Assembly: GCA_001773695.1 (NCBI GenBank)
Contig: MEXN01000001.1
Location: 41,903-105,902, forward strand
DNA length: 64,000 nucleotides
Direction of reading: 5' to 3'
DNA from: Candidatus Amesbacteria bacterium RIFCSPLOWO2_01_FULL_48_25
GTDB lineage: Bacteria > Patescibacteriota > Microgenomatia > CAZETR01 > Amesbacteraceae
The translations under genes and the position numbers were made by a program. This document shows positions 13,146-56,024 of this stretch, in pieces; position 1 is the first letter of the stretch, and each line of letters opens with the position of its first letter. Under the pieces are notes generated by a model. That model was not told the DNA's origin and made no database searches. It saw nothing but the letters and a program-made list of their open reading frames with translations.

Positions 13146-13173
13146 AAGTTTACCACCAAAAAAGCACGAATTT

Positions 13174-13288
13174 CCCGGCCACGACCTATTTTCACGGAGA
13201 GTTGCCCCTCAGCTATTGTCAGCGCTGGCGCGTTTTACGGTCCAGTTCGGAATGGGATGGAGTAGTTCCACGCCGCTCCAGTGACCGG
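13174..13288 (-). rRNA. rrf: 5S rRNA
   Basis: The minus-strand reading CCGGTCACTGGAGCGGCGTGGAACTACTCCATCCCATTCCGAACTGGACCGTAAAACGCGCCAGCG...GTCGTGGCCGGG has helix I end-pairing and the CCGAAC loop-C signature. Confidence 0.8.
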
Positions 13289-13506
13289 AAAATTCGTGCT
13301 TTCTTAAGTTTTCAACCAGGCGTTTATTCCCTGGAAAGTGAAGAGAATGTTTGTAATAGATCACGCAAATCTACTTCAATAAGACCGATTAGTACAGGTT
13401 CGCTAAACGCGTTACCGCGCTTACACGGCCTGCCTCTATTACGGGGTATTCTTCCCCGGGTCTTCTGTCCACCTTGCGGTGAACATGAGCTCCTTATCTT
13501 GGGTAG

Positions 13507-13539
<33 letters not shown>

Positions 13540-13678
13540 CGTAGGCACTTAGCTACCCGGCGATGCCGCAAGACGCGACAACCGGCACACCAGAGGTACC
13601 TCCACCCTGGTCCTCTCGTACTGAGGGCAGACCCCCTCAAGAGCTCCCCGACTCTACTGGATAGAGACCGACATTCAT

Positions 13679-14479
13679 CCCGCATATCACTATACGGATT
13701 CGACCATATCTTCACTTCATAGCTCATTCTGAGCATAGTAGTGTCTGACGTATGGCCTGTGAGGATTCTAGTCACCAAAGCTTCGGAGTATTTTTTCCCT
13801 TGAAAACTTTCGCTTACCCGTATTCATGGAATAGGCGATCTCCAAAACTTTAGCCATCCCCTTTCTATGTAAATGCTGTCTTGATTTTACTAGCTCAACG
13901 ACTCGACAAAATTTATCAAAGTCTTCAGCCTTTTTAGTCAGCAATTTATTTCGAAAAAATGGGATTACTTTATCGACAATGCTTGGCAAATCTCTTACAA
14001 CATAAGCCAAACTTTTATCGGTTTTATCAGTTAGACTATTCTGTTTAATATAGCCGCAGTCTAATTTTCGTTTAAGTTTTTCCAAAACTATCCTCCCAGA
14101 AGGGTTCTGTGAAACTTTGAAAAAATAAACCACTTGCCAATGGGTAATTGTTTCCTGGCTTCTAACTATTCCTACATAGAAACAACCTTCGCCTTCAACA
14201 AAACCCACCAAATAATCATCACTGATCATTCGACTAGTCTTTCCTGCTGATAATCTTGCCTTCGTTCTCACACAAAGTGGTTTTACATTTTTACTAGTAT
14301 ACAAATACTACACTAGTAGCAAAACATTTACAAGGTTTTCCAGCATATAGTCAAATTTTATCCACACTTGGGTTGGTGGAATCATCTAATAACAGTTTCT
14401 CGCATAATTTAAATTAACATTCAAAAACGGTGGATGATAGACAGCTCGAAATTGTCACCTATTAGAATTACTTTAGGTC
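13679..14479 (-). mobile_element. Group I intron in 23S rRNA domain V (insertion after ...GAGACAGT, before TCGGTC...)
   Basis: Exon continuity GTGAGACAGT | TCGGTCTCTATCC is broken by about 800 nt that contain a LAGLIDADG ORF. The 5' exon ends in U and the intron ends in G, as expected for group I introns. Confidence 0.75.
13768..14304 (-). CDS. LAGLIDADG homing endonuclease (intron-encoded)
   Basis: LVGFVEGEGCFYVGIV is a LAGLIDADG motif variant. The ORF lies entirely inside the 23S rRNA intron. Confidence 0.8.
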   Translation of the reverse strand: MYTSKNVKPLCVRTKARLSAGKTSRMISDDYLVGFVEGEGCFYVGIVRSQETITHWQVVYFFKVSQNPSGRIVLEKLKRKLDCGYIKQNSLTDKTDKSLAYVVRDLPSIVDKVIPFFRNKLLTKKAEDFDKFCRVVELVKSRQHLHRKGMAKVLEIAYSMNTGKRKFSREKILRSFGD

Positions 14480-14516
<37 letters not shown>

Positions 14517-15105
14517 CTTTTAACCGGCGAACAGCCGGACCTTTGGGAGGTACTGCCCCCCCTGGATAGGATGAGCCGACATCGAGGTGCCAAACCGCCG
14601 CGTCGATATGGACTCTTGGCGGCGATCAGCCTGTTATCCCTAGGGTAGCTTTTATCCGTTAAGCTCGCCGCCACCCACGTGGCATGCGAGGATCACTACG
14701 GCCTGCTTTCGCACCTGCTCGAGCTGACACTCTCACAGTCAAGCACACTTTTGCCGTTACACGACCCGTTCGATTTCCATCCGAACTTAAGTGTACCTTG
14801 GCACTCCTGCGTTACCTTTTAGCAGGATACCTCCCCAGTAAAACTGCCCCCCAGACCTTGTCCCCTCCGACGTTTCCAGTCGGAATAAGTAAGTCTTGAG
14901 ATTTTAAAACGAGAGGTGTTTCACTTTCTCCCAAAGCCTTGCGGCCAAAGGATACCTCCTACTCTAAACTATCTCAAAATCCAAAACAGGGCCTGAGTAC
15001 AGTAAAGCTCCATAGGGTCTTTTTGTCCTAGTAGAGTTAGGCCGCATCTTCACAGCCATTTCAATTTCGCCGGGTAACAGTTCAAGACAGTTGCTCTGTC
15101 GTTAA

Positions 15106-15141
<36 letters not shown>

Positions 15142-16700
15142 CTTCGCTACCATAGAACAGTTATAGTTACTGCTGCCGTTCACTCGAGCTTCATTTCAAG
15201 TCTTCGCCCTTGCGGGCTAAACCATCCACTTAACTTACGAGCACTGGGCAGGCTTCAGCCTGTATACTGCCTCTTTCGAGTTTGCACAGACCTGTGTTTT
15301 AGTTAAACAGTCGCAGAGCAATCTTTCGCTGCGGTCCGCCAAATGGCGGACAGGACATCTTGCTAACTTACGTCCAGCTTTTTTGCCGAGTTCCTTGAAC
15401 TGCCTTCTCCCGATCGCCTTGGTCTACTCGACCATCCCACCAGTGTCGGTTTGCGGTACGGCAAAGTAAACGTCTCGTCACGAACTTTTTCTCGAAAACA
15501 AAAACATTCCGGATCATCAACTCAATTTCTCAAGTCAACTCTTCATCACCACTCAATTAAACGCCATGCCGGATTTTCCAGGCACAACTGTTTCATGGCT
15601 TAAACGCGCATTCACTGCACACGCCCAGATGTTCTCGTTTTGTCTATCCCTGACTATTAACGACGTCCACTCTGTAGCCGAATATTCACGGCTCGTCCAT
15701 CAGCTACGGCCACTACGCCCTCGCCTTAGGTGCCGACTCACCCTGGGCCAAACAATGTCGCCCAGGAAACCTTGGGATTTCGGCGGTCCGAATTCTCATC
15801 GGACTTACGCTACTCATTCCGGCATTCTCACTTGAAACCGCTCCAAACCGGTTTACACCAGCCCTTCGCAGCAATTTCAACGCTCCCCTACCGATTCGTG
15901 CGCAGCACGAAAGTTACTAAGTATTCCAGTTAACCAGTTGCACAGTTGATTTAAACTGACAAACTGGAAAACTGTCGAACTGAATAACTTTTGTGCTACA
16001 CACAAATCCTGTGTCTTCGGCAAAACGCTTCAGCCTCGGTTCATTTTCCGCGCCAAACTCCAAATTCGACCAGTGAGCTGTTACGCTTTCTTTAAAGGAT
16101 GGCTGCTTCTGAGCCAACCTCCTGGCTGTCTGAGGAATTTGACTACGTTCAACACTAAGCGTTCATTTAGAGGCCTTAGACGACAGTCTGGGTTGTTTCC
16201 CTTTAGATCGGCCCGCTTAGCCGGGTCGTTCTGACTCCCTCGTAAGTTCTTACCAGCATTCGGAGTTTGATTGAATATTACAACTTGCGCTGCAACACCC
16301 ATCCAGTGCTCTACCTCTGATAAGTTTTTAACGAGAGGCTATACCTATATATATTTCGGGGAGAGCCAGCTATCTCCTGGTTCGATTGGCATATTACCCC
16401 TAATCACAAGTCGTCCCACAGGTTTGTAACCCTGACGGGTACGGGCCTCCCTCCGGTTTTCACCGGAGCTCACCCTGCTCATGATTAGCTCACCAGGTTT
16501 CGGGTCTTCCAGCTGCTGCTTTTCGCCCTATTCAGACTCGCTTTCGCTCCGCCTACTCCCGATTTAATCGGGATTAAACTCGCAACAACCGAAAACTCGC
16601 CGGATCATTCTTCAATAGGCACGCGATCATCCGCCAGATGGCGGACTCTCACTGCTTGTTAGCAGACAATTTCAGGTTCTATTTCACTCGGGTTTCGCCC

Positions 16701-16742
<42 letters not shown>

Positions 16743-17356
16743 ATGCCAAAGTATTTAGCCTTGGAGCGTGGTTGCCCCGGATTCCCACAAAGTATGTGCT
16801 TCATGGTACTTGGGAACAAGCTAGGGTGGATTTAGATTTCACCTACGCGGCTATCACGCGCTCTGGCCTGACTTTCCAGACAGTTCGGCTATCCAAAACC
16901 CAATCCCACATTACTTGCCCCGCAACACCACTCCATAGCCCTTACGGGCAACGGGTGGTTTAGGCTTTTCCGATTTCGCTCACCGCTACTCACGGAATCT
17001 CTTTGATTTATTTTCCAGTCCCTACTTAGATGTTTCAGTTCGAGACGTTCCCCCCACGTTCATTTAACTGAACGTGGTCTCCATATAGGAGGGGTTTCCC
17101 CATTCGGAAACCGCCGGATCAGCGCTTCTTGGCAGCTCCCCGACGACTATCGCGGCCCTGTACGTCCTTCTTCGGCTTTGACATCCTAGGCATCCATTGT
17201 CTGCATTACGGAAGTATAAAATGCGGCTCTACTACAAAATTCTCTTCACTTTTCAAAGAGCAAACATTCCTCAGCCGTTGATGGCTGATCTCGGCCTCCC
17301 CACGAAAGGGAAACCGGGATCAACTCTCAAAGCTTGCCCTGAGCACGGTCGAATGG

Positions 17357-17431
17357 GTGGACTCGGAGGGATTCGAACCCTCGACCTCATCATTGCAAAT
17401 GATGCGCTCTAGCCAACTAAGCTACGAGCCC
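17357..17431 (-). tRNA. tRNA-Ala (anticodon UGC)
   Basis: GGGCTCGTAGCTTAGTTGGCTAGAGCGCATCATTTGCAATGATGAGGTCGAGGGTTCGAATCCCTCCGAGTCCA has a G3:U70 pair, a UGC anticodon and a canonical T-loop. It sits immediately upstream of the 23S. Confidence 0.85.
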
Positions 17432-17442
17432 TCCGAATCTAA

Positions 17443-17471
17443 ATTGTCAAAAAAACACCTCCTTTCGGAGG
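17443..17471 (-). terminator. Intrinsic terminator (CCTCCGAAAGGAGG + U-run) upstream of tRNA-Ala
   Basis: Minus-strand hairpin followed by TGTTTTTTTG. It would separate the upstream protein genes from the tRNA-Ala-23S-5S unit. Confidence 0.45.
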
Positions 17472-17605
17472 CCACGATTACCTTGCTTTATAGGTGCTCT
17501 AGGACACGCCCGACACCAAGTTGATTAGATTTAAAAGCAAAGTCCTCATGAATTCAAACCACCCTCGAAAGGTAATCCTGATATTACCTTCCCCTTCCCT
17601 CCCTG

Positions 17606-17908
17606 TCAAGCCCGTCCACTATGGTTATGCATAAGTTTTGGCTGTGAAGCAAGTATCCTAACCAGTTCCCTCCTAGCCTTTTCGGCAACAAGTATGTTCG
17701 CATTGACCAACCTCCTATCAATATTTGCCTCCGAAACCCCTTCGGTAACCCCGGGATCCAACTCATAATAGTCACCGGATTTATCCTTTAATTCTTTCAG
17801 CCTGGCCAGCTTAACTGAATACGAAACCCCACTTAGTACATCGGCATCAAAAGATCCCAGCATCTCCTCACGTCTCATTCTTTCATCAAACTGAGCATCA
17901 GTTTCCAT
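17606..17908 (-). CDS. Hypothetical protein (100 aa), last gene of the HlyD/MacB-like cluster
   Basis: Acidic, non-repetitive composition; no motif recognised. Confidence 0.3.
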   Translation of the reverse strand: METDAQFDERMRREEMLGSFDADVLSGVSYSVKLARLKELKDKSGDYYELDPGVTEGVSEANIDRRLVNANILVAEKARRELVRILASQPKLMHNHSGRA

Positions 17909-17940
17909 GGCTATATTTTAAAATCCCTTCCAGTCAACTC

Positions 17941-19179
17941 TTATTCATACCTCAAGGCCTCAATCGGGTCTAAACGCGCGGCCCGTACCGCCGGCGCCAG
18001 TCCCGATACTATCCCCACCACGGCCGACACCCCAAAAGCCAAGAGTACCGATCCCAAGCTCACCTGAGTCTCGATAAACCTTCCCAAAATTAGAGAAAAC
18101 CCGGCCCCTATGCCTATTCCCATTCCCCCCCCCAGTACCGACAATACTATCGCCTCAATCAAAAATTGCAGCAGTATATCTCTTTTAGTCGCCCCCACCG
18201 CTTTGCGAAGTCCAATCTCCCGCGTCCTCTCCGTCACCGACACCAGCATAATATTGGCAATCCCAATTCCGCCCACAACCAGAGAAATTGCCGCAATCCC
18301 AGACAATGCCCCCGTCACCACCCCCAAAAATGAATTAATCGTCTCCAATAGTTCCTTAGGCTCAAGTATCGTAAAGTCGTCATCCGTCAAATTCTTGCGG
18401 TAAAAATAGTTTTTAATTTTCCGGGCAGCCACCGCCGTCCCCGCAGCATCCACTGTCCTCACCATTACTGCCGCCGGTTTTTTAATCCCCGTTACCCGAG
18501 ATGCCGTAGTCACCGGCATCAGCACAAAAGTATTTTCATCACTATTTCCTCCTATCCCCCCGCCTTTCTCCTTCAAAACTCCGACAATAGTCATCTGCGA
18601 TCCCACCACGTCAATCTCCTTTCCCACCGCATCGCCGACCCCGCCAAATAGTTCCTCATAAACCTTGTGTCCAATTACCACTACCATCTGGCTCCGTTCC
18701 AGCATACTTTTAGTAAAAAACCTGCCCATTTCCACCTCCACGTTGCCGTAATCCAAATACTCCTCGCTTACCCCCGCGATATTTCCGTAAAAGGTTTCAG
18801 AGCGGTATTTTAGTGTCCCCCCCCGGGAAATCATCCCCGACGCCTTCACTATCGGGTCTCCCAAATCGCCTATTTCTTTTATGTCGTTAAAATCAAACTT
18901 CGCCTCTACGTTTCTTGGCGGTCCGCCAGAAAAACTCACTTTCCCAGGCGATATCAAAAGGATATTCGACCCCAAGGACTCAAATTCACGCGTCACAAAT
19001 GCCTGCAGCCCGTTGCCAATAGACACCAAAAGAATGACCGACGCCACCCCGATAATAATCCCCAACGTAGTCAAAACCGACCGCGTTTTATTGGTTCTAA
19101 TAGCAATCCCGGCCGTCCTAAATAACTCGACTCTATCCATACTATCTGATGACGATCCTTTCGCCTTCTTTAAGCCCAA
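17941..19179 (-). CDS. ABC transporter permease, MacB/FtsX family (MacB periplasmic core domain + FtsX)
   Basis: N-terminal TM, a large periplasmic domain, then a C-terminal FtsX-type 3-TM bundle (TERTREIGLRKAVGATKRDIL). No ATPase gene is adjacent. Confidence 0.8.
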   Translation of the reverse strand: MGLKKAKGSSSDSMDRVELFRTAGIAIRTNKTRSVLTTLGIIIGVASVILLVSIGNGLQAFVTREFESLGSNILLISPGKVSFSGGPPRNVEAKFDFNDIKEIGDLGDPIVKASGMISRGGTLKYRSETFYGNIAGVSEEYLDYGNVEVEMGRFFTKSMLERSQMVVVIGHKVYEELFGGVGDAVGKEIDVVGSQMTIVGVLKEKGGGIGGNSDENTFVLMPVTTASRVTGIKKPAAVMVRTVDAAGTAVAARKIKNYFYRKNLTDDDFTILEPKELLETINSFLGVVTGALSGIAAISLVVGGIGIANIMLVSVTERTREIGLRKAVGATKRDILLQFLIEAIVLSVLGGGMGIGIGAGFSLILGRFIETQVSLGSVLLAFGVSAVVGIVSGLAPAVRAARLDPIEALRYE

Positions 19180-20137
19180 CTTTTACTTCTATCAAATCAT
19201 CCCCCTCAATCCCTATCTCCACTTTCCTCTTCCCTCCACCCTCCATCTCTGCCTCACCATCCACCACGGCTTCAATCGGCAACTTCAATACATTTTTCGC
19301 CTCCGAAACGACAAGTGTCGCATCCCCGTTCATCCCCACCCTTAATATCTCAATATCCTCTTCACTTATCTTGACTCTCACCGAAAACACTGTCGCCCCG
19401 GCATCTGAAATATGGGCCACAAACTCAATTATTTTTATTTCCCCTTCAAATTCTTTATCCGGATATGCATCCAGCTCAACCTTCACTTTCTTCCCAATAG
19501 TTACCATGGACAAATCCGCCTCATCTACCTCGGCCTCAAAATACAGCGAGTCGGGATCCACTACATCCACTCCATCGGTAACCCCCGCCGCCTGCCCTAC
19601 CACATTCACAGTCACCCTGGCCACAACCCCGTCAAATGGCGCGATCAAACTGGCATTATTCTTGGCCCGGATCGCGCTCTGCCACGTATCATAAGCTTTA
19701 TCCCTGACGGTCTGTGCCGCCACCCGCTTGTTTTTCAGAACAAATGTCTCGTCATTATCATGGCCTTTTACTTCGTCCTCCACCTGTTTGGCATTAGCAT
19801 CCGCCGCGATATAACTATAATAGGCGGCCGTTTCGGCAGCAGCCAAATCCCGCACGTCCAATCCCATCATAGCCGTCCCCTTTTTCACCTCGTCTCCCTC
19901 GCGGGCCTTCACATACCCCAGCTTACCCGGACTCAAGAATCGTAAATGCGCTTCTTTCTCCGCTTTGATTTTCCCCGATAGTGCCAGAGTCCTAACCACG
20001 TCACCCTTCTCCACGCTCACAATCCTTGTATTCTTGTTGTTGTTGCTTTTACTCCTCATCCACAACCACCACCCCGCCCCAACGACAAGTATTAAAATAG
20101 CAATCGCTATGTTGCGCCGCCTCATAGACTTACCCAT
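19142..20137 (-). CDS. Efflux/secretion periplasmic adaptor (HlyD/MacA family membrane fusion protein)
   Basis: N-terminal TM anchor, coiled-coil segment, lipoyl/beta-barrel segments. It overlaps the permease gene. Confidence 0.75.
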   Translation of the reverse strand: MGKSMRRRNIAIAILILVVGAGWWLWMRSKSNNNKNTRIVSVEKGDVVRTLALSGKIKAEKEAHLRFLSPGKLGYVKAREGDEVKKGTAMMGLDVRDLAAAETAAYYSYIAADANAKQVEDEVKGHDNDETFVLKNKRVAAQTVRDKAYDTWQSAIRAKNNASLIAPFDGVVARVTVNVVGQAAGVTDGVDVVDPDSLYFEAEVDEADLSMVTIGKKVKVELDAYPDKEFEGEIKIIEFVAHISDAGATVFSVRVKISEEDIEILRVGMNGDATLVVSEAKNVLKLPIEAVVDGEAEMEGGGKRKVEIGIEGDDLIEVKVGLKEGERIVIR

Positions 20138-20419
20138 TTTAACTCACCGTGCTAAACTTAAATAAGATTATGAAACCAACCACAGTCGTCTTTAGTCTCA
20201 TAGCCACCATCGCTGTCGTTTTTCTTGTGGCGGCCATTGGTTCCTTCCTCTACGGCATATTCATCCTCCCCAAACTCAACCGCGGCATTTTTTGTATTCA
20301 ATCCCTCTCCCGTTCCTGCTTTCTTGGTTCCACTATCTGTTACAATTTCCCCAATCCCTGCTCCGCCCCACCCCTCTGGTACCCCAGATCCCGCTAGTTA
20401 AGATATAATTCACCTGTTC

Positions 20420-20491
20420 GGGTCGCTGGTTCAGCGGTAGAACGTCGTCCTGATAAGACGAAAACGCCAGGTCCGACTCCTGGGCGACCCA
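20420..20491 (+). tRNA. tRNA-Ile (anticodon GAU)
   Basis: GGGTCGCTGGTTCAGCGGTAGAACGTCGTCCTGATAAGACGAAAACGCCAGGTCCGACTCCTGGGCGACCCA folds as a cloverleaf only on the plus strand. Anticodon loop CTGATAA; T-loop TCCGACT is non-canonical; a TATAAT box lies 10 nt upstream. Confidence 0.7.
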
Positions 20492-20504
20492 CTAAAACTA
20501 TCCA

Positions 20505-20741
20505 TCACTCTACTAGAGTAAATCCAATCATTCGCCCCTCTTTATTCACCACCTCATCAAACTTTCGGCCATTTGGTAATTGCCACCTTGTCTTTTTTTC
20601 CCCATCCTTATCTCTACACCAAACAGCCTCCCACCCCCACCGCTTCCTATCCTCAGCAATTGCAAACTCCTTTTCCAGCCGCCGCCTATTTATCAAGCCC
20701 ATAAGACGAAGATACTCCAAATCGCCTATCTCCTTCATCAA
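20505..20741 (-). CDS. Hypothetical small protein (78 aa)
   Basis: ORF between tRNA-Ile and the 16S; basic/acidic mix; no motif. Confidence 0.3.
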   Translation of the reverse strand: MMKEIGDLEYLRLMGLINRRRLEKEFAIAEDRKRWGWEAVWCRDKDGEKKTRWQLPNGRKFDEVVNKEGRMIGFTLVE

Positions 20742-20992
20742 ATATCTGTTTTTAAGCTCTTCCGTTTCTGTTCTCCAACCCGGAAATCTCCCTCTCGAGT
20801 CCCTCCACCATATCTTTATAAACCATAAATTCCGTATACCGCAGTTCGGAAAGAGAATTCTCGTGCCGCACGCCCCGGAATTTTCTCTTGGCCTCCAAAT
20901 ATTTCGGCTTATATTTCGCCAGCTGCTCCTCCAAATATTTCAGCCTCGTCTGAGTGTCCATACCCCATTTTAACCCTCCGACCAACAGTAAC

Positions 20993-21235
20993 CTACTGCC
21001 TAAAAAGCAACACACCCAAAAGGCGAGCCAACACCGACTCTCTTGGATTTACACGCATCCAATATCCCCTACGAACCCTATCTACTACTCCCCTCATGTG
21101 ACATTGGGTACAACTAAATTCTCTGCCCGCCAGCCCTTCCGCAGCTTTCTTCTTCAATATCTCAGGCAACGGACAATCGCTCTCTTGTTGACAACCCACA
21201 ATTACTAATGGCACTCCTAACCTCATTTCTATCAT
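20993..21235 (-). CDS. Hypothetical small Cys-containing protein (80 aa; C..C...C..C.H zinc-ribbon-like)
   Basis: CQQESDCPLPE...CTQCHMRG. It sits just after the bidirectional terminator that follows the 16S. Confidence 0.3.
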   Translation of the reverse strand: MIEMRLGVPLVIVGCQQESDCPLPEILKKKAAEGLAGREFSCTQCHMRGVVDRVRRGYWMRVNPRESVLARLLGVLLFRQ

Positions 21236-21261
21236 ACTCAGATTATATCAATAACAAGGCC

Positions 21262-21291
21262 AAAAAACCCGCCAAATAGGCGGGCTTTTTT
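21262..21291. terminator. Bidirectional intrinsic terminator AAAAAACCCGCCAAATAGGCGGGCTTTTTT
   Basis: Perfect 6-bp GC stem flanked by an A6 run and a T7 run, located about 180 nt past the 16S 3' end. Confidence 0.75.
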
Positions 21292-21470
21292 GCTTGTACT
21301 CTAAAAAGTGGTAGGAAATATAAGTAGCGGGAAACTGCTTTTGACGTGTGCTGCTTCCCCTACCTGCGGGTCCCGTTATTTTAATGTGGACGGTTTCCAA
21401 TGACCACAGGGTGATTTCCACTACGGCTCTGAAAAAATTAATTTTCTAAGCCTACCGTGATTAACTCCTA

Positions 21471-22965
<1,495 letters not shown>

Positions 22966-51454: not shown

Positions 51455-51745
51455 CAAAAAGACGTGCGGGGTAGTGTAGAGTTGCACGGAAGGCTAGTAG
51501 TATGGGCCCCGCCGACAGTAATGTCGGTGTGCAAACTTGGCTATATCGGTGGACACCCCGGTGTAATACCGGGACAATACCGAGGCAATCCCGAAAGGGC
51601 GAGTCCGTAGAGACTAAACGCCAAGTCCCCCCGAAGCTTCATGCGAAGGGGGAATGATATAGTCCGACACTCAAAGTAATTTGAGATTACAGATCAGCAT
51701 AATCTTCCAGGCCGGGCGCGACTCCCGGCCCCGCAACAAGTAAAA
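51455..51745 (+). ncRNA. Unidentified structured RNA candidate (about 290 nt, GC-rich, ORF-free)
   Basis: No ORF in any frame across about 350 nt, and GC markedly above the flanks. Many local hairpins with GNRA-type loops: GCGGGG...CCCCGC, CCGACA-GTAA-TGTCGG, CCGGT-GTAAT-ACCGG, CCC-GAAA-GGG, CTCAAA-GTAAT-TTGAG, GCCGGG...CCCGGC. Confidence 0.35.
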
Positions 51746-51806
51746 TTTAGCTTCAAAAACCGAGAGATGGGAGTGATAGGATCACGCCTGGTGTATAATT
51801 TAACAG

Positions 51807-52178
51807 GTGAAGCTTAAGAAAATTCTGGATAAATTACTCGAAATATACTTTTTGGGAATGGGAGTGTTCTTTGTGTTCGGGTCTGTGGTATCTTTCTTTG
51901 TATTTCTTTCCCAAAAGGTCGAAGTAGGCCTTATAACACCCGTTAAAACCCTAGTATTTGGACTCCTTTTTCTTTATTCAGGTGTTAGTTTAATGAGAAA
52001 GAAAGCCCACGGATACCAATATTGTCTTCTGGCATTGGCGATAGTTTTCCTTGTATCAACCCTGCATAGATTGTTTTTTGTAACAAGTTTCAGATTAGAG
52101 CGGGTGGATTTTAATAACTTACTTTTGTTTGGAATCCCGTTCCTGGTCACCCTCCTCTCGAATAAATTAGAAATATGA
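51807..52178 (+). CDS. Hypothetical membrane protein (123 aa, 4 TM), GTG start
   Basis: Hydrophobic helices; GTGTATAAT lies about 10 nt upstream. Confidence 0.4.
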   Translation: MKLKKILDKLLEIYFLGMGVFFVFGSVVSFFVFLSQKVEVGLITPVKTLVFGLLFLYSGVSLMRKKAHGYQYCLLALAIVFLVSTLHRLFFVTSFRLERVDFNNLLLFGIPFLVTLLSNKLEI

Positions 52179-52195
52179 TCGTATCGGTTTTGATA

Positions 52196-52225
52196 AAAAC
52201 CAGGTTCTGATTTCATCCAACCCCC
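52196..52225. repeat. Direct repeat copy 1 (AAAACCAGGTTCTGATTTCATCCAACCCCC)
   Basis: About 30 nt with 27/30 identity to 53236..53267; it lies immediately 3' of the fic gene. Confidence 0.7.
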
Positions 52226-52228
52226 AAA

Positions 52229-53188
52229 TTAGGTTGACAATTTTCGCTGCCTTTGCCGCCCTTTAACATATCTTTCTATAGCTTCTTGAGTGGCAACCCA
52301 AATGCGCTTTTCCTTGTGTGCTTCGATTTTTCCGAAACGGGCCAAAAGATTGAGATATTTCTTTGAGTAAGGAGTTAAATTTACCAACGAAGACAGTGGT
52401 TGATATTTTTTCCCGGCATCTACTTCGGGAGACAGGGTTTTTAGGTAAATATTCAACGATCGTTCTATCGCTTGGGCCACAAAGCGAATCAACGGAGCAA
52501 GCTTCCCTTTGTCCGCATCTGCCAAAACCCGATAATATTTTTGCCTGTCGTTTTTTAGAATAACCACCAGAGGATAGCCTCTGTTTAGTAAGACAAGGTT
52601 CATAACCAAACGGGCAGTTCGTCCGTTACCATCCACAAAGGGGTGGATGTAAACCAGTTTGTGATGCAGAATAGCCGCGAATTCAACAGGATGGAGCTTT
52701 TGAATATTCTCCCCGGCCCAGGATATCAAATCGCTCATCTCAAACGAAACTTCACTCGAATCCGGTGGTAAATGGTCGGAACCGGTAATCATGACATTGG
52801 TTTGTCTATAACTTCCGGCTTGGTCCGCTTCCGTTTCCCGAACTACCAGCTTGTGCAGGTTTCTGATTAAAACTTCCGAAATTGTTTGTTGGGAGTTTTT
52901 TTCAACTAACTCATAGAGGTAATCCAACGCGTCGTAATGATCACGTGCTTCCAGATGGTCTTTAAGCGGTTTACCCTTGATAGTCAGGCCGTCTTTAATA
53001 ACCCAAGCCGTTTCTTTGAGAGTTAAGGAATTGCCCTCAATCGCGTTGGAATTGTAAGTCATTTCTATGGCAAACTGTTCCCGCAGCTTAGCCACAGCAG
53101 ATGTAGACAACGGTCTTTGAGGGTTAAGTTTGGCCAGTTTTTCATCAATTCTAGCCTGAATTCGAGAGTCTAATATGGTATAGACCAT
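52229..53188 (-). CDS. Fic-family protein
   Basis: HPFVDGNGRTARLV core motif; C-terminal helical domain. Confidence 0.8.
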   Translation of the reverse strand: MVYTILDSRIQARIDEKLAKLNPQRPLSTSAVAKLREQFAIEMTYNSNAIEGNSLTLKETAWVIKDGLTIKGKPLKDHLEARDHYDALDYLYELVEKNSQQTISEVLIRNLHKLVVRETEADQAGSYRQTNVMITGSDHLPPDSSEVSFEMSDLISWAGENIQKLHPVEFAAILHHKLVYIHPFVDGNGRTARLVMNLVLLNRGYPLVVILKNDRQKYYRVLADADKGKLAPLIRFVAQAIERSLNIYLKTLSPEVDAGKKYQPLSSLVNLTPYSKKYLNLLARFGKIEAHKEKRIWVATQEAIERYVKGRQRQRKLST

Positions 53189-53235
53189 ATTTCTTCTTAT
53201 ACCATGTTAAGAACTGGATTGCAAGCAGGTAGTGA

Positions 53236-53267
53236 GAGAAAATAGGTTCTGATTTCATCCAATCCCC
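53236..53267. repeat. Direct repeat copy 2 (AAAATAGGTTCTGATTTCATCCAATCCCCG)
   Basis: Matches 52196..52225; it lies immediately 5' of the fic gene. Confidence 0.7.
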
Positions 53268-53276
53268 GCAACCAAG

Positions 53277-53304
53277 TCAAAACCCGCTTCACGGCGGGTT
53301 TTTT
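53277..53304. terminator. Bidirectional intrinsic terminator AAAACCCGCTTCACGGCGGGTTTTTT
   Basis: GC stem CCCGC/GCGGG flanked by an A-run and a T-run. Confidence 0.6.
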
Positions 53305-53322
53305 AGTCCCTCATCCTAAGGT

Positions 53323-53328
53323 ATAATC
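53323..53328 (+). promoter_or_regulatory. -10 box TATAAT, 11 nt upstream of the tRNA 5' fragment
   Basis: cctaaggTATAATcaaggctaaatcGGCTACG. Confidence 0.4.
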
Positions 53329-53339
53329 AAGGCTAAATC

Positions 53340-53358
53340 GGCTACGTAGCTCAATGGT
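53340..53358 (+). repeat. Duplicated tRNA-Met 5' segment (acceptor and D-arm, 19 nt: GGCTACGTAGCTCAATGGT)
   Basis: 17/19 identical to positions 1-19 of the intact tRNA at 54095; tRNA-like sequence does not continue beyond it. Confidence 0.7.
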
Positions 53359-53426
53359 GTATTTTAAAAACGTTGGTTGTAAGAAATGCGAACCGATGAT
53401 ACAATAAACCATAGATATCGTTTTCT

Positions 53427-54104
53427 ATGGCAAAATCGTACCTTAAAAACAGGGCCATCGAGCTTCGTAAATCCGGCCTGAGTGTCAAGAATATCGCTGA
53501 ATCCCTAGGAGTCTCCAAAAGCACCGCAAGTTTGTGGGTCAGAGACATAGTCCTTTCTCTTGAACAAGAGGAGTCTCTAAAACAAAGATCCTTAAAAGGA
53601 GCGGAAAAGGGTCGCACAATCGGATCGCTAGTTCAAAAACAAAGACGGCTCAAACTGCTAGAAACAGAGAAAAAAATCGGGATAAAAGAGGTGGGGCAAC
53701 TCACCAAAAATGAGCTTAAAGTCGGCGGCTTAGCTCTGTACTGGGCCGAAGGATCCAAAAAGAACCGCAGAGTCGAACTTTGCAACTCGGATCCCTTCGT
53801 TATCAAGTTCTTCATCAACTGGCTCATTAATACTTTCGACATACCCATAAAGGAACTCTCTTGCTATGTCGGTATTAATGAGGCTCACAGGGCTAGAGAA
53901 GTCAAAGTGAAAAAATACTGGTCGCTCTTAACGAAAATTCCCCTCACCAGCTTCACTAAAACTAGCTTCAAAAAGTATCCCCTCAAAAAAGAATATCCAA
54001 ACTTTGACGAACACTATGGCACACTTTCAGTTCGTGTGCGGAAACCGGCACGAATTTACTATAAAATCCTAGGTGGAATCCACGGACTGTCCATGGCTAC
54101 GTAG
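53427..54104 (+). CDS. HTH + LAGLIDADG-like putative homing endonuclease (225 aa)
   Basis: N-terminal HTH (LRKSGLSVKNIAESLGVSKSTASLWV) and a LAGLIDADG-like motif GGLALYWAEGSK. The stop codon TAG lies within nucleotides 8-10 of the downstream tRNA (GGCTACGTAG). Confidence 0.45.
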   Translation: MAKSYLKNRAIELRKSGLSVKNIAESLGVSKSTASLWVRDIVLSLEQEESLKQRSLKGAEKGRTIGSLVQKQRRLKLLETEKKIGIKEVGQLTKNELKVGGLALYWAEGSKKNRRVELCNSDPFVIKFFINWLINTFDIPIKELSCYVGINEAHRAREVKVKKYWSLLTKIPLTSFTKTSFKKYPLKKEYPNFDEHYGTLSVRVRKPARIYYKILGGIHGLSMAT

Positions 54105-54167
54105 CTCAGCGGTTAGAGCGCACGCTTCATAAGCGTGATGTCGCTGGTCCGATCCCAGCCGTAGCCA
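54095..54167 (+). tRNA. tRNA-Met (anticodon CAU; elongator type or tRNA-Ile-lysidine, not initiator-like)
   Basis: GGCTACGTAGCTCAGCGGTTAGAGCGCACGCTTCATAAGCGTGATGTCGCTGGTCCGATCCCAGCCGTAGCCA is a complete cloverleaf. G1-C72 and the absence of three G-C pairs in the anticodon stem argue against an initiator. T-loop TCCGATC. Confidence 0.85.
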
Positions 54168-54431
54168 CATGTCCAAAGATATTCTGTTCCGGATCCGCCA
54201 ACCCCAAAAACCAGGGCCAACAACTTTTCTCAATGGTATCCCATACTCACGAATAAGACACGCATACAATCTAAGCAATCAAGCCCCTGTTGAAGAATCA
54301 CCCTCCTCAATAACCCTTTTCGAGAGAGTTGTTACTAGTAAAACCAGTTGGATAAGGCCATGTCGCGTAATTACGCCACGCGAATGGCTGGTATCTCAAT
54401 TAATCAAACTCTTTCCCAACGAAAAAGTGGT

Positions 54432-54803: not shown

Positions 54804-55742
54804 TTGCAATCTCCACCCCAACCAGGTACAATTCATCAATTAACCTGTCCCATAGTCAATTTACAAATGGCCTCACTTCCCGACCCAATTAGCTTTGATA
54901 CTGCCCTGGAGAAATTTACCAGCCACCTTAAAAGTCAACACCGCTCTTCCTCCACCTCAATAGCCTATATCGGCGACCTGGCCCAACTCCGCTCCTACCT
55001 GGAAACTCACCGCATTACCCAAGCTACTACCGTCCAAACCCAGCACTTAGAGGAGTTTGTCACCCAGCTGGGAGAAAAAAACTACACTCCCAAGTCTATA
55101 AGCCGCAAGATCAACTCACTCAAGACTTTTTTCAAATTCCTCCATCAAACCGGCCTCCACAACTCCAACCCCGCCTCTCCCCTCACCCACCCCAAATACA
55201 CCACTCCCCCACCCCGCATATTAACCCAAGAAGAATACTCCAAGCTGCGCGACGCCTGCCGACTGGATATTAGGGTTTGCGCCATCGTCGAGATCCTTCT
55301 CCAAACCGGCATGCGCATTTCCGAGCTGGCCAACCTCAGGCTGGAAGACATCAAGAAAAACGAGCTTTTCATCCGCCCTCTAGAAAACAATCCGGAGCGT
55401 TCCATCCCCTTAAACCGCCAGGCTACCATCGCCATTCAGAACTACCTGAGCCTGCGTCCCACCACTGCCGATACCCATCTTTTCGTCACCAAAACCGGCC
55501 GGCCGCTACTGATTAGAAATATCAGAACCAGTATCGATCGCTATTTCAAAAAGGCCGGCCTGAGCAACATCAAAGTCAACGATCTTCGGCACACCTTTAT
55601 AGCCCACCAGCTAAGTAACGGCGTCCTGCCCGAAGTCATCCACAAACACGTCGGTCACCGCCGGATCAGTTCCACCGAAAAATACCTCGAATTTATAAAG
55701 ATCACCGCCACTACCACCTCCTCCAAACTCCTGGAATTGTAA
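54804..55742 (+). CDS. Tyrosine site-specific recombinase (XerC/XerD/integrase family); likely start MASLPD near 54870
   Basis: N-terminal SAM-like core-binding domain; catalytic R...HxxR...Y (LRHTFIAHQL, HVGHRRISSTEKYLEF). Confidence 0.8.
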   Translation: MQSPPQPGTIHQLTCPIVNLQMASLPDPISFDTALEKFTSHLKSQHRSSSTSIAYIGDLAQLRSYLETHRITQATTVQTQHLEEFVTQLGEKNYTPKSISRKINSLKTFFKFLHQTGLHNSNPASPLTHPKYTTPPPRILTQEEYSKLRDACRLDIRVCAIVEILLQTGMRISELANLRLEDIKKNELFIRPLENNPERSIPLNRQATIAIQNYLSLRPTTADTHLFVTKTGRPLLIRNIRTSIDRYFKKAGLSNIKVNDLRHTFIAHQLSNGVLPEVIHKHVGHRRISSTEKYLEFIKITATTTSSKLLEL

Positions 55743-55949: not shown

Positions 55950-56024
55950 TGGTGACTCGACGGGGAATCGGACCCCGATTACGGGGATGAAAGCCCCGTG
56001 TCCTAGCCGTTAGACGATCGAGCC
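55950..56024 (-). tRNA. tRNA-Glu (anticodon UUC), CCA encoded
   Basis: The minus-strand read GGCTCGATCGTCTAACGGCTAGGACACGGGGCTTTCATCCCCGTAATCGGGGTCCGATTCCCCGTCGAGTCACCA has anticodon loop CTTTCAT and T-loop TCCGATT. Confidence 0.8.

Follow-up and report, generated by a model that had tools for sequence, protein, structure and literature searches.

The genome of Candidatus Amesbacteria bacterium RIFCSPLOWO2_01_FULL_48_25 (assembly GCA_001773695.1, contig MEXN01000001.1) harbours a small protein-coding gene that ends inside a tRNA gene. The stretch of DNA analysed here, which we call the window, comprises 64,000 nt (positions 41,903-105,902 of the forward strand of that contig). In the window, a 225-residue open reading frame (ORF) encoding a helix-turn-helix (HTH) and a LAGLIDADG-like domain is found between a displaced copy of the 5′ end of a tRNA-Met gene, hereafter the relic, and an intact elongator tRNA-Met(CAU) gene that supplies its stop codon. 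The ORF belongs to a family of the Candidate Phyla Radiation (CPR) that is very large and apparently undescribed, and whose members adjoin a few specific tRNA genes. We see about an even chance that a stand-alone tRNA-Met gene was invaded by a free-standing cassette of the homing-endonuclease-like type, and that this cassette was later inherited mainly vertically, with occasional replacement.

The original prediction for this locus described an intact tRNA-Met gene, a 19-nt copy of its start, a terminator, a TATAAT box and a 225-aa ORF stopping inside the tRNA, and all of these sequence statements hold (Table 1). The TAG stop codon of the ORF is U8-A9-G10 of the tRNA-Met (54102-54104). The copy at 53340-53358, GGCTACGTAGCTCAATGGT, is identical to the start of the tRNA-Met, GGCTACGTAGCTCAGCGGT, over the first 14 nt and at 17 of 19 positions overall, the two copies being spaced by 736 nt, and its homology to the tRNA begins exactly at +1. 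Taken at its full length of 20 nt (53340-53359), the relic, GGCTACGTAGCTCAATGGTG, agrees at every position (20/20) with the start of the intact tRNA-Met found in a relative, L094, and this allele, GGCTACGTAGCTCAATGGTGGAGC..., differs in the D-loop from the live tRNA-Met of the window. A chance similarity is excluded by the uniqueness of the match, since no other site on either strand of the window matches any 19-mer of the tRNA-Met at 17 or more of 19 positions, and by shuffling of the 1-kb upstream region, where such a match arose in 0 of 2000 shuffles. A tandem duplication that took in the 3′ end of the ORF was discarded as well, the DNA to the left of the relic having no significant similarity to the ORF in either the window or the related locus L002. 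The relic resembles the beginning of a tRNA gene that once stood alone and had a −10 box of its own, because the TATAAT box has the spacing found in stand-alone tRNA genes of related genomes (TAtAAT 8-12 nt before +1).

The terminator hairpin had been attributed to the inserted unit itself, a claim that we do not retain. Because the hairpin directly follows a sequence, CCCCGCAACCAAGTCAAA, that repeats the 3′ end and trailer of the initiator tRNA-fMet gene and whose match score is attained in 0 of 300 shuffles, we read it most simply as the trailer of an ancestral initiator-tRNA gene, so that it is probably the old fMet terminator and not a part of the element. The copy itself marks the point where a small inserted islet ends on the right and that ancestral trailer begins. 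The promoter-ORF cassette extends from 53360, next to the relic, to about 54114, in the live tRNA-Met, and the unit measures 755 bp. Its left part (53360-53426), an A/T-rich stretch with a promoter and a short leader, is conserved in L001, L002, L004 and L005. The predicted promoter (53377-53405) consists of a −35 box TTGTAA (53377), a 17-nt spacer and a TG-extended −10 box TACAAT (53400-53405). A 7-bp hairpin (CCATAGA...TCTATGG; 53408-53431) covers the start codon of the ORF and no clear Shine-Dalgarno sequence is present, which suggests that translation is low. At the other end of the gene, the conserved YYKI codons (54058-54066) read TATAAAAT about 29 nt before the +1 of the tRNA, with a TATAAA at 54060-54065, a possible internal promoter of tRNA-Met. 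No intron or ribozyme was detected in 53150-54350, even at E ≤ 1, and the downstream tRNA-Met is uninterrupted, for which reasons an endonuclease encoded within a tRNA intron was rejected.

The protein itself combines an HTH that is detected by sequence with a second domain that is recognised by its predicted fold. The HTH matches HTH_23 (aa 9-40, E = 4e-6), as expected from the original prediction. At E ≤ 1, Pfam gives HTH families only, with no match to the LAGLIDADG_1/2/3, Hom_end, HNH or WhiA models, and searches of NCBIfam, PHROGs and PDB sequences for LAGLIDADG, HNH or other nucleases gave no match, even with a profile of the family. The hidden Markov model check for LAGLIDADG or HNH domains that had been proposed therefore detects neither, and the motif noticed at the outset (LALYWAEGSK) finds its support in the predicted structure. 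The AlphaFold2 model (mean predicted local distance difference test, pLDDT, 88.7) has an alpha-beta-beta-alpha-beta-beta-alpha core; it matches LAGLIDADG endonucleases (I-DmoI, I-CreI) and WhiA, with fold matches to I-Tsp061I, I-CeuI, I-CvuI, I-Vdi141I, I-MsoI and I-CreI. The motif helix, G101-LALYWAEG-109, ends in E108 followed by G109. In a profile-sequence comparison with hhalign, for which the I-DmoI sequence was entered by hand, LALYWAEGSKKNRRVELCNSDP... (LALYWAEGSKK) aligns with GLYVAEGDKTLKRLRIWNKNK... (GLYVAEGDKT) of I-DmoI (P = 8e-4, 27% identity, 44 columns). Among 109 sequences sampled across all subfamilies, G101, Y105, E108 and G109 are 100% conserved, and some 23 positions are conserved at 90% or more. 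E108 stands at the position of the LAGLIDADG catalytic acid, which WhiA and the intron maturases have lost, and the presence of one domain of about 130 aa would imply a homodimer. Fold and motif group it with the LAGLIDADG endonucleases, but the curated sequence models do not; as its nuclease activity is a prediction, we consider the protein as LAGLIDADG-like and not as a proven member of that group.

Several high-GC relatives of 500-576 aa (P0323, P0333, P0336, P0345 and P0362) carry two complete HTH-LAGLIDADG units per chain; such a fusion is the classic path from a homodimeric to a single-chain LAGLIDADG enzyme. Comparison with L001 gives a ratio of nonsynonymous to synonymous substitution rates (dN/dS) of about 0.1, and the 225-aa ORF is a real gene under selection. 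A transposase (IS630, IS3 and similar) was rejected, as the weak matches cover only the HTH (aa 6-98) with scores far below the cut-offs; no inverted repeats were found at the ends of the cassette, and PADLOC did not assign the ORF to any defence system.

This ORF is far from being an isolated case. Homologues detectable in a protein database clustered at 90% identity number 430, relatives occur in 550 GTDB species genomes, a scan of metagenome contigs for close relatives gave six loci, and, with proteins clustered at 50% identity, a profile search returned 6031 clusters at E ≤ 1e-3 and still 3209 at the stricter E ≤ 1e-10. Essentially all of them come from Patescibacteria/CPR (Amesbacteria, Levybacteria, Woesebacteria, Gottesmanbacteria, Moranbacteria, Nealsonbacteria, Kaiserbacteria and similar groups), and public annotation calls them “hypothetical”, “helix-turn-helix domain-containing” or “transposase”. 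Full-text searches of the literature gave no description of the family or of its linkage to tRNA genes, and neither appears in the papers on introns and homing endonucleases of CPR bacteria that we consulted.

Linkage to tRNA-Met is a regular feature of the subfamily to which this ORF belongs (A1), as seen in 80 loci for which similarity of the protein was the only criterion of choice. Of these, 70 pass a strict coordinate test for an elongator tRNA-Met downstream of the ORF and on its strand; with two further loci where the start of the ORF had been mis-set, the figure rises to at least 72 of 80, and one locus is cut at the end of a contig. The ORF usually lacks a stop codon of its own and most often ends on U8-A9-G10. 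Among 67 junctions that were scored, 48 ORFs run into the tRNA, 28 of them ending on these three nucleotides and 17 deeper, at positions 15-42, and the ORFs that do not enter the tRNA stop 0-37 nt before it, except one at 104 nt. The varied C-terminal tails of the proteins (...SMAT, ...NMPG, ...QGSSVG, ...AGSGLVSRGVS) are tRNA sequence translated in different frames. On its upstream side, the ORF of most related loci has an initiator tRNA-fMet gene at a distance of 26-125 nt, so that A1 genes are typically placed between fMet and tRNA-Met; this fMet gene is usually on the opposite strand and interrupted by a group I intron in Microgenomates, and on the same strand and intron-less in Parcubacteria. 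Some of the elongator tRNA-Met genes that adjoin an ORF show aberrant D-arms, such as GGCAGGGAGTGGACTGGTGTCCC (loci L004, L007, L035, L041 and L047).

A similar geometry is repeated at other tRNA genes by paralogous subfamilies. Subfamily B (more than 532 proteins, 34% identical to the ORF of the window) adjoins tRNA-Ile(GAU) in 6 of 6 loci (L085, L086, L088-L091), two of them within the spacer between 16S and tRNA-Ile, and its ORFs end either 1-17 nt before the tRNA or on positions 8-10. In subfamily C (more than 1122 proteins), all 4 loci that were inspected (L015, 5852-6541 on the minus strand, and L096-L098) have a gene that stops 9-20 nt short of tRNA-Ile(UAU). Members of subfamily A2 diverge from an intron-bearing fMet gene and have no tRNA downstream. 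All of the partner tRNAs (initiator Met, elongator Met, Ile-GAU and Ile-UAU) read AUN codons, which may indicate either stepwise shifts of target between similar tRNA genes or a functional link.

Occupancy at syntenic sites is patchy, and empty sites exist. The junction between the TraG-like ATPase gene and tRNA-Ile(UAU) holds a subfamily C gene in L015, L096 and L098, whereas among 12 loci picked by other means than subfamily C it is empty in 11, with 20-45 nt in which a TAtAAT box is included. In L066 and L075, fMet and tRNA-Met form a tandem that contains no intervening ORF, the gap being 26 nt in the first and 6 nt in the second. Unoccupied sites, which the original prediction expected in relatives, do exist.

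A history of the cassette distinct from that of its surroundings emerges from comparison with L001, an Amesbacteria metagenome-assembled genome that served as the reference for segment identities. Read from left to right, the window and L001 are 32% identical in the left flank, 50% in the relic, 89% in the promoter and leader (53366-53426), 86% in the ORF and 90% at tRNA positions 1-20, and then 61% at tRNA positions 21-56 and 57% in the right flank. Synonymous divergence (dS) is 0.63 for the ORF as opposed to 1.4-1.8 for the downstream genes FtsB, Xer and ATPase. The Xer genes of the window and L001 are 66% identical, and those of the window and L002 or L005 64-66%, whereas for the ORF the values are 87% versus 56-60%; the window-L001 pair is the largest positive outlier (z = 3.5) among 666 pairs in which ORF identity was compared with Xer identity. 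In these alignments the tract of young divergence coincides with the interval bounded by the two repeat copies, and the cassette behaves as though it had been inherited separately relative to L001.

There is a second relic, GGCTGCGTAGCTCAAT, in L002. With respect to the cassette promoter its location is as in the window, but an A2-type paralogue ends 63 nt before it, so that it lies between this paralogue and an A1 cassette, and its flanks are unrelated to those of the window. Both relics end in the D-loop, at positions 16-20. As the two cassettes are saturated at synonymous sites (proportion of synonymous differences, pS, 0.86) and no alignment is obtained between their flanks, independent origins are the more likely explanation of the relics, and a relic shared by descent seems unlikely. 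L001 matches at 12 of 21 positions in the corresponding place, roughly the neutral decay expected from dS. The relic was also considered, and rejected, as a general hallmark of the family, being absent from the other loci of subfamily A and from those of subfamily B.

How such an arrangement could have arisen is suggested by the tRNA gene itself, as its D-arm forms in DNA an inverted repeat, GCTC-N7-GAGC, centred on the D-loop. Homodimeric LAGLIDADG enzymes typically bind pseudo-palindromes and cut across the central 4 bp. Because of this preference, of the inverted repeat of the D-arm and of the two relics that end there, we propose that a homodimeric nuclease would cut a cassette-free tRNA-Met gene in the D-loop/D-arm inverted repeat. 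The right-hand end would then be repaired from a cassette-bearing donor through homology in the tRNA and the downstream genes, and the left-hand end would be joined illegitimately, upstream of the promoter of the donor. Such an event would install a promoter, an ORF and a fresh 5′ end of the tRNA, leaving the old promoter and tRNA positions 1-20 as a scar. Over longer times, the cassette would be an ancient companion of tRNA-Met throughout the phylum, re-invading only occasionally. In this scheme the anatomy of the locus, the protein fold, the tRNA linkage across the family, the empty sites and the discordant history of the cassette are observed, while nuclease activity, the site of cleavage and the route of repair are inferred. 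The claim of a small mobile unit that inserted at the D-loop and regenerated the tRNA is thus favoured by the separate history of the cassette relative to L001 and by the relic of L002, while the part of it that implied a recent local insertion does not stand, because the ORF-tRNA-Met junction is phylum-wide and its inheritance is mostly vertical.

A number of observations weigh against mobility, and most of them would be equally expected from a domesticated, vertically inherited DNA-binding factor, resembling WhiA in principle, that regulates Met and Ile tRNA genes or is coupled to tRNA 5′ processing; the relic would then be debris from the deletion of a redundant tRNA-Met gene. We regard this explanation as possible, if somewhat doubtful. 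In addition to its phylum-wide distribution, the family shows conserved downstream synteny in relatives (tRNA-Met, FtsB, Xer, a tRNA and the TraG-like ATPase), ORF identity tracks Xer identity (r = 0.64 over 666 locus pairs), and the low dN/dS is housekeeping-like, indicating strong purifying selection that agrees with the many conserved positions. Decayed copies are few (2 of 80 look broken). The family is nearly absent from phage DNA, where one weak partial match was the only hit in 2.9 million viral contigs, and a phage origin was rejected on that account. Relics are rare: of about 95 loci, the window and L002 are the only 2 that have one, apart from a possible decayed trace in L001, and the roughly 93 other loci with the same ORF-tRNA junction have none. 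The discordant history amounts to one clear case, the window-L001 pair; even there the right boundary is fixed no better than tRNA positions 1-22, because L092, with an ORF that is only 61% identical, likewise has the tRNA sequence of the window at positions 1-26. Finally, the live tRNA beside the cassette keeps its D-arm, and the proposed cleavage does not account for self-immunity. A domesticated factor, however, is at odds with the Glu at the catalytic position, invariant in 109 of 109 sequences, with the recurrence of the ORF-to-tRNA geometry in paralogous subfamilies at different tRNA genes, including some inside rRNA operons, and with the patchy occupancy of syntenic sites. Nor would it readily explain why the young, cassette-limited divergence from L001 extends to non-coding promoter DNA, or why two relics in unrelated contexts share a D-loop breakpoint.

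The neighbouring fMet intron offers another starting point. The ORF could encode a LAGLIDADG maturase, or a trans-acting homing enzyme of that group I intron in a case of collaborative homing, with the adjacency to tRNA-Met being secondary. In most Microgenomates loci the intron-bearing fMet gene ends some 75-125 nt upstream of the ORF, 9-10 of the 10 A2-type copies (8 A2 loci, L002 ORF′ and L022b) keep only the fMet association, and the 202-nt fMet intron of the window has no ORF. Nevertheless, the fMet gene beside the ORF is intron-less in 24 loci, against 42 that were counted as intron-bearing (a few of which are regular-expression artefacts), subfamilies B and C reside at intron-less tRNA-Ile genes, the fMet gene of the window is 1.7 kb away, and both the stop codon inside tRNA-Met and the tRNA-Met relic are left unaccounted for. 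We therefore deem an fMet-intron enzyme very unlikely. Most improbable of all seems a mini integrative element whose attachment (att) core would be the 5′ end of tRNA-Met and whose movement would depend on a tyrosine recombinase, for instance the product of the Xer-like gene (54804-55742). Direct repeats of a tRNA segment do flank the cassette, the tRNA is regenerated and a tyrosine recombinase gene lies 640 bp downstream, but this gene is outside the repeats and, being syntenic with FtsB in all relatives with or without a relic, is probably the chromosomal Xer. Moreover, the 755-bp unit has no integrase, the HTH-LAGLIDADG ORF being the only gene between the repeats, and the scarcity of relics at equivalent junctions is not what this model would lead one to expect.

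A free-standing homing-endonuclease-like cassette can also be compared with several known systems. With the LAGLIDADG homing endonucleases (I-CreI, I-CeuI, I-MsoI, I-DmoI, I-Tsp061I) the family shares the predicted core fold, the motif helix, at whose end an invariant acidic residue precedes a Gly, a single domain of about 130 aa and highly conserved RNA genes as putative targets. It differs from them in the lack of a Pfam LAGLIDADG match, in the additional N-terminal HTH and long helix, in a gene that is free-standing, outside any intron or intein, and that adjoins a tRNA gene on its 5′ side and takes its stop codon from it, and in a largely vertical inheritance across a phylum; its activity is a prediction. 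WhiA also joins a LAGLIDADG fold to an HTH and is widely conserved in a large bacterial clade. In WhiA, however, the LAGLIDADG domains are two in number, degenerate and devoid of catalytic acids, and the HTH is C-terminal, whereas the proteins described here have one domain with an invariant Glu and an N-terminal HTH, and do not match the WhiA model.

Free-standing phage homing endonuclease genes spread by co-conversion of flanking DNA, and by analogy they seem the closest behavioural counterparts, for example SegB, from the tRNA cluster of T4, and mobE. In the phage systems as in the present family, a stand-alone nuclease gene is wedged between conserved genes and the similarity between genomes is limited to the cassette; the phage enzymes are of the GIY-YIG or HNH type, in contrast to a LAGLIDADG-fold protein in cellular CPR genomes whose coding sequence overlaps a tRNA. 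The mobE gene is described as a free-standing homing endonuclease gene of T4-like phages (PMC2790892). The closest conceptual analogue would be the integration of islands at tRNA 3′ ends, of which the present case would be a mirror image. Such islands are likewise flanked by a direct repeat of a partial tRNA, and a copy carried by the insert regenerates the gene; here the 5′ end is duplicated, the unit is 0.75 kb long with no integrase inside, and the displaced copy keeps the native promoter. In collaborative homing, as exemplified by F-CphI and psbA, a free-standing endonuclease acts together with an ORF-less group I intron. Members of the family, especially those of A2, are similarly found beside an ORF-less group I intron in fMet, although many others adjoin intron-less tRNA genes, and a role of the intron insertion site as target is unsupported.

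Table 1. Features of the tRNA-Met locus and its surroundings, in coordinates of the window.
Feature	Position	Strand	Basis or remark
Initiator tRNA-fMet, split at position 33/34 by a 202-nt ORF-less group I intron (51496-51697)	51465-51737	+	Rfam
Small islet between the fMet gene and the copy of its 3′ end and trailer	51738-53281		
Islet: membrane protein gene	51807-52178		
Islet: Fic gene	52229-53188	-	SoFic defence model, E = 5.5e-34
Copy of the initiator tRNA-fMet 3′ end and trailer	53264-53281	+	17/18 match to 51729-51745
Bidirectional intrinsic-terminator hairpin, 10-bp stem	53279-53302		-14 kcal/mol, z = -3.2; A-run before, T-run after
TATAAT -10 box, putative promoter of a former stand-alone tRNA-Met gene	53322-53327	+	12 nt before the relic
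tRNA-Met 5′-end relic, positions 1-20, broken in the D-loop, different allele	53340-53359	+	Sequence comparison
Left part of the cassette: A/T-rich stretch, promoter, short leader, start-codon hairpin	53360-53426	+	Promoter scan
225-aa protein gene	53427-54104	+	HTH aa 9-40, long helix 58-89, single predicted LAGLIDADG-fold domain ~94-223
Intact elongator tRNA-Met(CAU)	54095-54168 (ARAGORN), 54095-54167 (Rfam)	+	Rfam 67.7 bits; uninterrupted
tRNA-Glu(UUC)	55950-56024	-	Between Xer and the TraG-like ATPase

Other features of the window concern the same tRNA genes (Table 1). ARAGORN missed the fMet gene, but its exons, once spliced, give the fold of an initiator tRNA. The ORF family has this gene as a conserved partner on the upstream side, and here the islet displaces it by 1.7 kb. 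About 38 of 66 related loci have the same fMet gene with an intron, and fMet introns at position 33/34 have been reported for Cyanobacteriota (PMC13011429). The Fic gene of the islet is flanked by direct repeats of 35-40 nt (52186-52225 and 53228-53267), and L001 carries a different cargo at this place, including a GIY-YIG-like ORF; by its sequence organisation, the islet site looks like a conventional hotspot of integration at a tRNA 3′ end. At the position of the tRNA-Glu(UUC) of the window, L001, L002, L092, L093 and L095 have tRNA-Ile(UAU). The window also contains an unusual rRNA operon on the minus strand (13173-22965; 16S 21472-22965, tRNA-Ala 17356-17431, 23S 14406-17220, 5S 13173-13289), in which about 4 kb with a MacB-like permease (17941-19179) and an HlyD-like protein (19142-20137) lie between 16S and tRNA-Ala. 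The tRNA-Ile(GAU) of the window (20420-20492) is on the strand opposite to this operon, and no family member precedes it.

The tiny genomes of CPR/Patescibacteria carry many introns and homing endonucleases in their rRNA and tRNA genes. The family described here would appear to add a further layer, with thousands of HTH-LAGLIDADG-fold genes placed at the 5′ edge of specific tRNA genes and often sharing nucleotides with them. If these proteins are active, they would represent a new architectural class of free-standing homing endonucleases that spares the host gene by means of a replacement 5′ end and not by splicing, and they would also supply natural meganucleases directed against tRNA genes. 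In the case of domestication, they would be a conserved, CPR-specific factor tied to the Met and Ile tRNAs. There is also a more speculative idea, which we judge unlikely, that these genes do more, or have come to do more, than serve themselves: the family would consist of phylum-wide nuclease genes that co-evolved with the tRNA genes of the AUN box and whose output is coupled to tRNA 5′ processing. Since translation ends inside the unprocessed tRNA, cleavage by RNase P at +1 would strip the stop codon from the mRNA, and the amount of protein would then report on, or be throttled by, the processing of the tRNA 5′ end. Were this true, it would constitute a new kind of coupling between a gene and a tRNA, which could act as an “addiction” or drive module of tRNA genes, or as a quality-control nuclease, in streamlined genomes.

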